Source: a virus (Duplodnaviria; Heunggongvirae; Uroviricota; Caudoviricetes). Taken from it: 4,733 nt of DNA. The position numbers and the translations under genes were made by a program. Shown here one piece after another: positions 1,030 to 4,733 of the stretch. The DNA lies in the IMG/VR virus record IMGVR_UViG_3300029450_000024; one strand, given 5' to 3'. A model generated the notes under the pieces. The model ran no database searches, was not told the origin of the DNA, and saw nothing but the letters and a program-made list of their open reading frames with translations. The first letter of the stretch is position 1. Every line of letters starts with the position of its first letter.

Positions 1030-1057
1030 TTGACAATGTACCTTTGAGATACATAAT
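1030..1057 (+). promoter_or_regulatory. PL-like strong sigma70 promoter driving the rightward early operon
   Basis: -35 TTGACA (1030..1035), 16-nt spacer, -10 CATAAT (1052..1057), placed immediately after the terminator. Confidence 0.6.
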
Positions 1058-1073
1058 GTACCCAACCGAAACA
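1036..1073. promoter_or_regulatory. OL-like operator sites overlapping the PL-like promoter
   Basis: ATGTAC-N7-ATACAT at 1036..1054 (one mismatch to the GTACAT half-site) lies in the promoter spacer and -10. A weaker ATGTAC-N7-AAACAA follows at 1055..1073. Confidence 0.45.
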
Positions 1074-1264
1074 ACGAACAGGCAGGACGCCCACGAAGTA
1101 GCCGCCTAGGGCATATGAAGTCCAGGATGATTCGTTGAGTCATGTTGTGCCACCAGGCAATCATGTTAAAGCAGGTGTATGAAATGAAAGTCCAGATTTT
1201 AAACAATAACTGTGAAGTCGTTTGGGCGTAAAACATGACCGCGCGTAGACCAAGGGAGGAAAAA

Positions 1265-1594: not shown

Positions 1595-1810
1595 AACTAT
1601 TTCCTTCTTGGCTATATGAAAACACCAAGATACCACCGAGCCTGAAGTGGTGAAAAGACAGGCACATAACAGCTAAGTATTTTCAACCAAAGAGAATCCT
1701 TAGCGTTGTGGTGAATGCGGCTCAGCGCACGCGGGTTAAGGTTGAGGCTGACAGTCGACCTTCTGTGGATACCCACCCGTCTGGTGTGCAACCTTCGCCA
1801 GGCACCGGGA

Positions 1811-1831
1811 GGCACCCGGCACCCGGCACCA
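1811..1831. repeat. Tandem heptamer repeat GGCACC(C/A) x3, with a further GGCACC copy at 1801..1806
   Basis: Direct reading: GGCACCC (1811..1817), GGCACCC (1818..1824), GGCACCA (1825..1831), inside a GC-rich non-coding island. Confidence 0.6.
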
Positions 1832-1855
1832 CAACTTTATGCTGTGTGTAGTCCT

Positions 1856-1902
1856 GGCGGTACCAGTTTGTACCCTTGCTTCCGGCTGGTACCGTCCTTT
1901 TT
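1856..1902 (+). terminator. Terminator-like hairpin (tL1-like) upstream of the yfdP homolog
   Basis: Stem CGGTACCAG (1858..1866) pairs with CTGGTACCG (1886..1894), extendable by G1857-U1895 and G1856-C1896; 19-nt loop; then C + TTTTT (1898..1902). Plus-strand only. The long loop makes its efficiency uncertain. Confidence 0.45.
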
Positions 1903-2039
1903 ACAAAACAGAGAAGAGCATCACCGGACGACGGGCTCATAACCCAATCCATCCGGGCGGCTGCCACCGCAGGTGTTCTTCTCTGTTTTGTGGAGAAACT
2001 AATCGGCCTTGCAGGGTCGATATGATGAGGAGCAGCAAA

Positions 2040-2402
2040 ATGGCTAGCGAACGCAGTACTGATGTGCAGGCATTTATCGGGGAGCTGGACGGCGGCGTAT
2101 TTGAAACCAAAATCGGCGCAGTTCTCAGTGAAGTCGCTTCCGGTGTGATGAACACGAAAACCAAAGGTAAGGTCTCACTCAACCTGGAAATCGAACCATT
2201 TGATGAGAACCGTGTGAAAATCAAACACAAACTCTCATATGTTCGCCCGACTAACCGCGGGAAAATTTCCGAAGAAGACACCACCGAAACGCCGATGTAT
2301 GTCAATCGCGGTGGTCGCCTGACTATTCTGCAGGAAGACCAGGGACAGTTACTGACTCTTGCCGGTGAACCTGACGGAAAACTCCGCGCAGCAGGTCGTT
2401 AA
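2040..2402 (+). CDS. yfdP: YfdP-like prophage protein of unknown function (120 aa)
   Basis: ATG at 2040, 6 nt after GAGGAG (2028..2033). The provided 187-aa ORF starts further upstream in GC-rich sequence with a Cys/Arg/Pro-rich, low-complexity extension and no RBS. Assignment is from recalled length and sequence of the K-12 CPS-53 protein and needs BLAST confirmation. Confidence 0.75.
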   Translation: MASERSTDVQAFIGELDGGVFETKIGAVLSEVASGVMNTKTKGKVSLNLEIEPFDENRVKIKHKLSYVRPTNRGKISEEDTTETPMYVNRGGRLTILQEDQGQLLTLAGEPDGKLRAAGR

Positions 2403-4614: not shown

Positions 4615-4733
4615 TGGAGCCATACAGCCTGAACCGCCCCGGGTTTCCTGGAGAGTGTTTTATCTGTGAACTCAGGCTGCCAGATCATCGTTTCCGATGG
4701 AAGCATAATAAGCTTTTTCTGCTTCTGCCGGAG
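4614..4733 (+). CDS. Partial CDS (N-terminal 40 codons, continues beyond the window), hypothetical protein with a CxxC motif
   Basis: ATG at 4614 overlaps the yfdT stop (TAATG); GAGGTG Shine-Dalgarno at 4603..4608. Open to the window end: MEPYSLNRPGFPGECFICELRLPDHRFRWKHNKLFLLLPE... Confidence 0.5.
   Translation, partial: MEPYSLNRPGFPGECFICELRLPDHRFRWKHNKLFLLLPE

Follow-up and report, generated by a model that had tools for sequence, protein, structure and literature searches.

A pseudoknotted RNA gene in the early-left arm of an e14/SfV-like prophage, and its kinship to STnc100 and PasD

The 4,733-nt virus record IMGVR_UViG_3300029450_000024 (Caudoviricetes), which we refer to as the window, represents the left arm of a lambdoid prophage of the e14/SfV kind, now a remnant bounded by insertion sequences (IS). 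Just 5′ of its yfdP gene lies a GC-rich island, for which the initial annotation had proposed either an inserted miniature repeat or recombination scar, or a structured small RNA in the leader of the yfdP to yfdT operon. We show that positions 1707-1902 of the + strand are a gene for a structured, pseudoknotted noncoding RNA that ends in an intrinsic terminator, so it is the second proposal that finds support. The island is a real noncoding locus and looks functional. Judged by sequence and predicted fold, the element is a divergent relative of the prophage small RNAs (sRNAs) STnc100 and PasD. The kind of RNA is thus known; what is new, as far as we have found, is the subtype, its early-operon context, the pseudoknot, a second motif that we call hairpin B, and the mis-annotation of the element as the protein YmfH.

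A pseudoknotted RNA core that ends in an intrinsic terminator

The island stands out by its composition, as had been noticed: the GC fraction reaches 0.60 over 1701-1900 and 0.57 over 1801-2000, while the flanking DNA has 0.365-0.46, and the open reading frames (ORFs) overlap on both strands and are rich in Arg, Pro, Gly, and Cys. What had been missed is that the island consists of two structured modules with a terminator between them, that the second module is a hairpin with a 23-bp stem, and that a heptamer array in the first is one copy longer than in almost all relatives. The first module is a multi-helix core (1707-1833, + strand) with helices P1, P2, P2b, P4, and P5, and with a pseudoknot between 1738-1744 and the loop of P4. 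The features of the island are listed here, where MFE stands for minimum free energy.

1707-1713 (+), P1 5′ strand UGUGGUG, which pairs with 1827-1833 and is followed by the invariant junction AAU (1714-1716)
1717-1732 (+), P2 hairpin GCGGC-UCAGC-GC(A)CGC, with A1729 bulged
1733-1778 (+), P2b, GGGU (1733-1736) paired with ACCC (1775-1778), enclosing AAGGUUG (1738-1744) and a variable region (1745-1774)
1779-1803 (+), P4 hairpin, 1779-1786 paired with 1796-1803 in the MFE fold, with CAACCUU (1789-1795) in its loop
1805-1819 (+), P5 hairpin CCGGG-AGGCA-CCCGG, with a loop almost invariant in the family
1820-1826 (+), extra heptamer, the third GGCACCC unit, a 7-nt duplication at the P5/P1 junction
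1827-1833 (+), P1 3′ strand CACCACA, seen in the alignment and in the MFE fold
1836-1855 (+), conserved linker UUUAUGCUGUGUGUAGUCCUG, single-stranded in the MFE fold, which may serve as a seed or for Hfq binding
1856-1902 (+), intrinsic terminator with an 11-13 bp stem, a 19-nt loop, and U5
1900-1994 (+), hairpin B, with a 23-bp basal stem and a branched tip with the conserved ACGGGCUCAUAACCCAAUC, just 5′ of yfdP
1988-1997 (+), second of two similar 10-mers, TTGTGGAGAA, the end of the hairpin B 3′ arm and apparent relic of the P1 start of a missing second core

The covariation analysis that had been suggested as a check comes out clearly: helices P1, P2, and P5 and the pseudoknot strongly covary across 66-174 Enterobacterales prophage sequences. 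The helix statistics refer to an alignment of 66 nonredundant cores. For P1, P2, and P5 together, 96.5% of the cells are paired versus 81.7% in shuffled alignments (0 of 500 shuffles reach the observed value), with a covariation score of 0.387 versus 0.130, while slid controls are only 36-51% paired. Taken singly, P2 is paired in 99.1% of the cells, and P5 in 99.7%. The outer pairs of P1 covary (UA/CG/UG and GC/AU), as when GUGGUG/CACCAC becomes GCGGUG/CACCGC or AUGGUG/CACCAU; three of the five pairs of P2 change on both sides (CG, GC, and UA replacing one another); and in P5 a G-C pair becomes U-A in 13 of the 66 sequences (CCUGG/CCAGG). P2b covaries as well, to GGAA/UUCC in locus L159 and GGGGAAA/UUUCCCC in locus L008, and the base pairs of P4 take many pair types among relatives. 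The G-U pairs and the T tract fix the RNA strand as the + strand.

Other nucleotides hardly change at all. An alignment with K-12 e14, SfV, ST64B, 118970_sal3, and phiES15 has the near-invariant blocks TTGTGGTGAATGCGGCT.AGCGCACGCGGG, CACCGGGAGGCACCCGGCACCACAA, and TGCTGTGTGTAGTC. Across Enterobacterales, about 30 core positions are invariant or nearly so, clustered at the junctions and in the P5 loop; the P5 motif CACCNGGAGGCACCNGGCACC is also found across the order.

The pseudoknot pairs a segment 3-6 nt 3′ of P2 with the loop of P4. In the window, AAGGUUG (1738-1744) faces CAACCUU (1789-1795); phiES15 has AAGGCUG/CAGCCUU, loci of the L090 type CAGUUAA/UUAACUG, locus L136 AGACUGACAAA/UUUGUCAGUCU, and canonical STnc100 copies CCAGUC/GACUGG, AUCAGCA/UGCUGAU, and others. 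Altogether, over 30 different pairs of complementary alleles turn up at one position, which is the same in canonical and e14-type copies. How specific is this complementarity? We compared own with cross pairings in an alignment-free test on 174 nonredundant sequences. At least 6 contiguous Watson-Crick pairs are found in 55% of own versus 8.6% of cross combinations, and at least 7 contiguous pairs in 34% versus 2.6%. Counting in fixed columns of the MAFFT alignment gives only 45% paired cells, because the register shifts by 1-2 nt between subtypes.

Past the core, the linker is kept in e14, SfV, ST64B, sal3, and phiES15 even though the neighboring terminator stem differs. The hairpin with its T5 tail, already described by the initial annotation, is real: 1856-1866 pairs with 1886-1896 (11 bp, or 13 in the MFE fold), T1898-1902 follow, and both GGTACC sites are simply the two arms of the 1856-1896 stem. 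In ST64B and phiES15 the stem sequence is entirely different, in the same place and with hairpin and U tract retained. We also considered an antiterminator pairing between core and terminator and rejected it, since nothing covaries when the terminator stem changes in these two phages.

The window's own copy has one peculiarity. The four GGCACC repeats that had been recognized are there, at 1801, 1811, 1818, and 1825 (Tandem Repeats Finder reports GGCACCC x2.9 at 1811-1830). In the other copies, GGCACCC-GGCACC is the 3′ strand of P5 followed by the 3′ strand of P1, with a 0-nt linker in every copy seen. The extra heptamer is absent from SfV, ST64B, phiES15, and K-12 e14, and of 231 loci only that of the window's own strain has it (only 10 of the 2,788 matching E. 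coli records have at least 99% identity to the window). Standing at a junction with no linker, it must either bulge by 7 nt or widen the invariant pentaloop to 12 nt, and it drops the Rfam score by about 9.5 bits, from 39.5 (SfV) to 30.0 (window). We attribute it to slippage during replication, in a prophage remnant that is bounded by IS and in decay. Because of this duplication and of the IS-bounded setting, the window's copy may be functionally impaired.

Kinship with STnc100 and PasD

A scan of the window with all Rfam families gives a single match, to STnc100 (RF02076), at 1683-1904 on the + strand with 30.0 bits and E = 8e-4. The match is full-length and collinear, spanning model positions 1-206. 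The gathering score of the family is 47. Every copy of the e14/SfV/ST64B type scores 29-41 bits (phiES15 40.6, SfV 39.5, ST64B 35.1, locus L159 32.8, locus L128 29.4, K-12 e14 29.2), versus 57-147 for canonical copies. The window and the canonical copies share the invariant 5′ GGUGAAU and 3′ CACCGGGAGGCACCCGGCACC, and beyond the full-length match and both end motifs, the window has the covarying consensus helices and the Rho-independent terminator. No consensus-grade promoter of its own was detected at P1 (there is no promoter-like site in 1058-2100). Because all e14-type scores fall below 47, yet the architecture is the same, pseudoknot included, the element is best described from these comparisons as a homolog outside the curated RF02076 boundary.

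These copies constitute an e14 type, a subtype that occupies the early-left arm, 3′ of the repressor gene, in e14-, SfV-, ST64B-, and phiES15-like lambdoid phages; five annotated examples, phages or prophages, have the element on the strand of the repressor gene and 3′ of that gene. With STnc100 it shares the prophage location, helices P1, P2, P4, and P5, the position of the pseudoknot, and a Rho-independent terminator after the core. The two differ in P2, which is GCGGC...GC(A)CGC in the window, as the counterpart of the canonical CCCCC...GGGG hairpin, and in P2b, an extra helix of the window. They also differ in location, since the window copy is in the early-left, repressor-side operon, and the canonical copies are in the late, stx, or tRNA region. 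Canonical copies often come with a promoter of their own, TTGACA-17-TAAATT, whose end is about 7 nt 5′ of P1, and with a terminator of their own.

Canonical members are known from expression data. Eleven STnc100 copies are annotated in EDL933 with transcriptome reads, one of them confirmed by Northern blot (PMC5331693), and EcOnc27/sRNA103 of enterohemorrhagic E. coli is an Hfq-binding sRNA that overlaps STnc100 downstream of stx2 (PMC12711010). Zhu, Shabalina, and Storz report a common ancestry and structure for PasD and STnc100 (bioRxiv 10.64898/2026.05.13.724894), and PasD1/2 show Hfq-dependent stability, Northern bands, and targets by RIL-seq (PMC8550237). By their published description, the likeness of PasD1 and PasD2 of enteropathogenic E. 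coli E2348/69 to our element is that of a prophage sRNA with Hfq-dependent stability and a terminator; the difference is one of place, PasD being encoded in the late region, close to Q and lpxR. We searched for a reported sRNA at this position in e14 or ST64B and found none, and a literature search with sequence strings matched only a primer (PMC12370729).

The expectation that the island would hold something not yet described is therefore borne out in part. The element belongs to a superfamily whose members STnc100 and PasD are described. On the other hand, the subtype lies below the Rfam threshold everywhere, RefSeq calls it a coding sequence (CDS) or pseudogene, and as far as we found neither the pseudoknot nor the hairpin B motif is described in Rfam or in the literature of the family.

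The element is widespread. When IMG/VR and one genome per species are scanned with sequence patterns, hundreds of copies come up across Enterobacterales, among others in Escherichia, Salmonella, Enterobacter, Klebsiella, Citrobacter, Kosakonia, Pantoea, Erwinia, Rahnella, and Serratia. About half of the complete E. coli genomes have it, at as many as 5 places in one genome. Some canonical copies of STnc100 belong to arrays with phage tRNA genes (loci L127, L135, L142, L310, and L319), and in L310 and L319 the tRNA begins 8-11 nt past the 3′ strand of P1. As a general feature, we rejected tRNA linkage: a same-strand tRNA within about 300 nt upstream is found for 22 of 205 canonical and 1 of 100 e14-like copies.

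A different core can occupy the same slot. In mEp460 (L352, 2340-2497), the terminator, hairpin B, and the flanks AGCGTTGTGGTGAATGCG ... CACCACAAC surround a core with P2 GCGCAGGCUGAUGCGC and the 3′ hairpin CCGGAGAUCAGCACCGG, which RF02076 does not detect at E <= 1. The upstream copy of locus L008 also has a different core of the mEp460 type in that slot. This is a third subtype, and it suggests an exchange of cassettes between conserved flanks.

Hairpin B and the surrounding operon

Hairpin B is a second, independent RNA motif immediately 5′ of yfdP. It has an MFE of -49.1 kcal/mol (z = -7.4) and no match in the all-family Rfam scan. With different stems (z -3.8 to -7.7) it recurs in locus L122 (two copies), locus L140, ST64B (L003), K-12 e14 (L002), and locus L227. 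The conserved tip reads ACGGG.UCAUAWCCCAAUC, and the stem differs between the window and ST64B by compensatory (G-C to A-U) or wobble changes. The small stem-loop GCGG-CTGCCA-CCGC of the initial annotation does exist, at 1957-1970 and not at 1967-1980, but what relatives keep at the equivalent place is the pairing CUG...CAG, not GCGG/CCGC. In L122 (1628-1728, 1905-2000) and L140 (10095-10182), the 3′ arm of hairpin B and the P1 5′ strand of the next core overlap by 5-6 nt, which could make a folding or processing switch.

From its predicted shape, hairpin B is probably a processing hairpin of the RNase III type and a 5′-leader module. RNase III hairpins are well known in phage early transcripts, among them the lambda N leader, sib, and the T7 R sites. 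Like them, hairpin B forms a duplex of about 20 bp in the leader of an early operon, with an upstream RNA on one side and the first downstream gene on the other. It differs in its conserved branched tip motif, which is not known from those sites, and in that its cleavage is a prediction.

The surroundings of the two modules are as follows.

Minus strand, cro-like ORF, ahead of ymfK
316-990, ymfK, the gene for a LexA-type repressor
1002-1021, terminator of the repressor gene
1030-1057 (+), pL-like sigma-70 promoter TTGACA-16-CATAAT (11/12 consensus match) with TGTACC-type operators
1235-1441, ymfJ-like ORF
1403-1636, ymfI-like ORF, convergent
2027-2042 (+), ribosome-binding site GAGGAG (2027-2032) and ATG (2040) of yfdP, the first gene after the RNA modules, at the RefSeq yfdP start

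The pL-like promoter, placed 3′ of the repressor gene and its terminator, is the sole promoter-like site in 950-2100. After the island the gene order is yfdP, yfdQ, yfdR, yfdS, yfdT. The start of yfdP is uncertain, because in-frame ATGs at 2022 and 2025 precede the annotated one at 2040. At the beginning of the window, an IS1 end (region 1-74, with the RefSeq IS1A transposase stopping at 59) truncates the cro-side operon, and at its end an element of the IS3 family starts right after yfdT (about 4630-4733). No tRNA or tmRNA was found in the window.

We made two further observations in this neighborhood. Upstream of the core, 1640-1672 holds GCCTGAAGTGGTGAAAAGACAGGCACATAACA, which is kept even in phiES15 (L004) and in locus L110 despite different downstream sequence; it is a candidate for the end of the antisense ymfI-like unit, or for another signal. 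On the other side of the immunity region, on the minus strand, SfV (L005, 189-377) and ST64B (L003, 407-595) score above the Rfam thresholds for a C4 antisense RNA and for an isrK-like RNA; these genomes are rich in regulatory RNAs.

What the RNA may do

Taken as a whole, the explanation that we consider probable is an sRNA gene of the STnc100/PasD superfamily, transcribed from the pL-like promoter, of the Hfq type and trans-acting, with processing at hairpin B. The most likely role, as far as sequence comparison can indicate one, is that of an SOS-induced, Hfq-type small RNA from the early-left transcript. In K-12, "ymfH", ymfJ, xisE, and intE are induced by azidothymidine (AZT) in dependence on LexA cleavage (PMC11228462). 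It is from this co-induction, and from the lack of any promoter-like site between 1058 and 2100, that we infer transcription of the element from the pL-like promoter. Cleavage of the LexA-like repressor would release transcription from 1030-1057, and the stop at 1902 would yield an RNA of roughly 200 nt. The terminator hairpin, the U tail, and the U-rich single strand upstream would serve as an Hfq-type module. Its action would be in trans, as for the related PasD and EcOnc27/STnc100, with the linker 1836-1855 as the best seed candidate. Transcripts that read through would be cut in the stem of hairpin B, which would part the sRNA from the yfdP-yfdT message (in e14, the xis-int message). That this terminator is read through in K-12 is shown by the induction of xisE and intE, which lie downstream of the same terminator.

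A comparable arrangement is that of DicF, an sRNA of the dicB operon of the Qin prophage, 53 nt long and unstructured except for its terminator. There too a defective lambdoid prophage holds the sRNA within an early operon under repressor control, and processing and termination free it from a polycistronic transcript; DicF is not known to resemble the core in sequence or structure.

Directly after the pL-like promoter, 1070-1140 (+) carries AACGAACAGGCAGGACGCC...GTCCAGGATGATTCG, both ends of which resemble HK022 putL/putR (ACGAAC.GGC ... CAGGATGA). A comparison of the window, K-12 e14, and ST64B shows covariation in its second stem. The segment is a candidate for a put-type antiterminator, and in that role it would let polymerase from pL pass the 1856-1902 terminator.

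Several points weigh against the explanation that we favor. Folded as a single sequence, 1700-1905 beats its shuffles by a modest margin only (z = -1.8), and the window's 30.0 bits are less than the gathering score of 47. For the e14 type, a discrete stable RNA, its ends, Hfq binding, and targets are all predictions, as is, from its shape, RNase III cleavage of hairpin B. Duplexes of ten translation-initiation regions of the window with the linker and with the variable region show chance-level complementarity (best z = -2.55 and -1.97 among 20 tests). Finally, ultra-conserved junction and loop nucleotides, together with a pseudoknot and a variable interior, are unusual for a base-pairing sRNA; an RNA that binds a protein or a ligand would account for this architecture no less well.

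Such a binding RNA is a serious alternative, although on balance an unlikely one. The core would be an aptamer, decoy, or scaffold that depends on its fold, with the variable interior setting the specificity, and it might for example bind a host or phage protein or serve in counter-defense. The fold is indeed more elaborate, and its junctions are more conserved, than a base-pairing sRNA needs, with a pseudoknot, four or five helices, and about 30 near-invariant positions at the junctions and in the P5 loop. mEp460 and L008 carry a different core in the same slot between the same flanks, much as if cassettes had been exchanged, and some canonical copies are found in tRNA-gene arrays. And an overexpressed K-12 "ymfH" clone is reported to trigger RcaT, the toxin of retron-Sen2 (bioRxiv 10.1101/2020.06.22.160242), an effect that could come from RNA because the insert is the RNA gene. 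However, no binding partner is known, the relatives are recovered with Hfq and form chimeras with mRNAs, the retron effect was ascribed to a protein clone and never dissected, and, by the counts given above, few copies of either type have a tRNA upstream.

A broader form of this idea, which we hold to be rather unlikely, would make the core a widespread phage RNA fold that binds a specific protein or small molecule, has exchangeable interior cassettes for specificity, and is cut out of operon transcripts at hairpin B, a dedicated processing hairpin not described before. If so, the P1-P5 coaxial stack, the pseudoknot, and the invariant nucleotides would be what matters, for example in anti-defense or in the control of host machinery, and it would be the RNA that triggers the retron in the experiments credited to "YmfH".

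Could the core instead act in cis? As a riboswitch-like attenuator, it would choose between a stop at 1856-1902 and read-through into yfdP-yfdT or xis-int. The core is directly 5′ of a terminator here, and directly 5′ of a ribosome-binding site in loci of the L090 type, which are the two classic layouts of an expression platform; and in L122 and L140 the hairpin B 3′ arm and the P1 5′ strand of the next core are mutually exclusive. Yet canonical members are genes that stand alone, each with a TTGACA-17-TAAATT promoter starting at P1 and a terminator of its own, and in ST64B and phiES15 the terminator stem changes without any covariation upstream. We think a cis-acting leader quite improbable.

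We give very little credence to a mobile miniature repeat, or its scar, inserted with a 10-bp target-site duplication. This idea came from the near-identical 10-mers on either side of the island. Both are present, the second at 1988-1997 as had been given, the first at 1706-1715 rather than 1707-1716, and their 9/10 identity does exceed chance: the pattern TTGTGGWGAA is seen 2 times versus 0.06 expected, and 2 of 200 shuffles reach 2 matches. An atypical GC content, presence in about half of the complete E. coli genomes, and up to 5 places per genome would also suit a mobile element. But copies are always in the same prophage position, terminal inverted repeats are lacking, and among the matches listed there is no empty site. 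A query for such a site (1600-1715 joined to 1998-2110) in 5,426 complete E. coli genomes returns, among the best matches listed, only two-piece matches spanning 494-511 nt, so the segment is always present there. Partial E. coli matches that start at 1855 are not empty sites; in mEp460 the same slot holds another core. As for the 10-mers, the first is internal and base-paired, being the invariant P1 5′ strand, and a lost tandem copy accounts for the second. In locus L122 (two units) and locus L140, a hairpin B with the same tip and another stem leads directly into TTG(T/C)GGTGAAT of the next core. The window, e14, and ST64B lack this next core, and only TTGTGGAGAA is left of it. Because hairpin B of L122 and L140 runs straight into the start of the following core, the likeness of the 10-mers is, on sequence grounds, homology between the starts of tandem units and not a target-site duplication.

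A protein gene is just as improbable, and we rejected it on frame length, codon-position pattern, and Pfam/NCBIfam searches. Annotation speaks for it: in the exact-match strain NZ_CP088131, RefSeq labels 1708-2025 a "frameshifted hypothetical protein", the 89%-identical copy of K-12 e14, directly 5′ of xisE-intE, is labelled YmfH (103 aa), and ymfH is among the induced genes in K-12 expression data. In the curated genomes of SfV, ST64B, and phiES15, the segment is unannotated. A conserved protein gene had been named as a finding that would count against the noncoding reading, and the ymfH frame is not conserved: from GTG1708 it stops after 11, 12, 16, 19, 27, 47, 75, or 103 codons depending on the variant. 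Variable sites among close relatives fall 8/12/10 by codon position, with no third-position bias, no frame of the region matches Pfam or NCBIfam, compensatory pair changes occur throughout, and the terminator hairpin falls within the supposed ORF. The 103-codon frame of K-12 results from a 1-nt deletion (an A) in the otherwise invariant AGGCA loop of P5. The K-12 copy (L002, 4069-4380) also has a G-to-A change in the P5 3′ strand; from its sequence it looks like a decayed RNA gene.

Least credible of all is a put-type processive antitermination RNA like HK022 putL/putR: the immunity region is HK022-like, the operon has terminators, no N-like gene is evident, and put RNAs are likewise cis elements of early operons of the same immunity-region type, but they have two stems in about 70 nt and are unrelated to the core in sequence and architecture (neither putL/putR nor the HK022 PL and PR regions show any likeness to 1707-1833, and the family motifs match nowhere in the HK022 genome), and a separate put-like sequence exists at 1070-1140 instead, so we rejected this identity.

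What follows for these prophages? In about half of the complete E. coli genomes, K-12 included, an annotation should be corrected: "YmfH" or "hypothetical protein" entries 5′ of yfdP or xisE are RNA genes, and published phenotypes of ymfH clones, such as the triggering of retron-Sen2, may need to be read again. The STnc100/PasD family widens to a much larger Enterobacterales superfamily, which includes subtypes missed at Rfam thresholds, and the pseudoknot fold that its members share is more elaborate than a seed-plus-terminator sRNA would predict. Hairpin B is a second recurrent motif that may mark processing sites in these operons. And an RNA in an SOS-induced early-left operon, 5′ of excision and early genes, is a candidate for post-transcriptional control in prophage induction.

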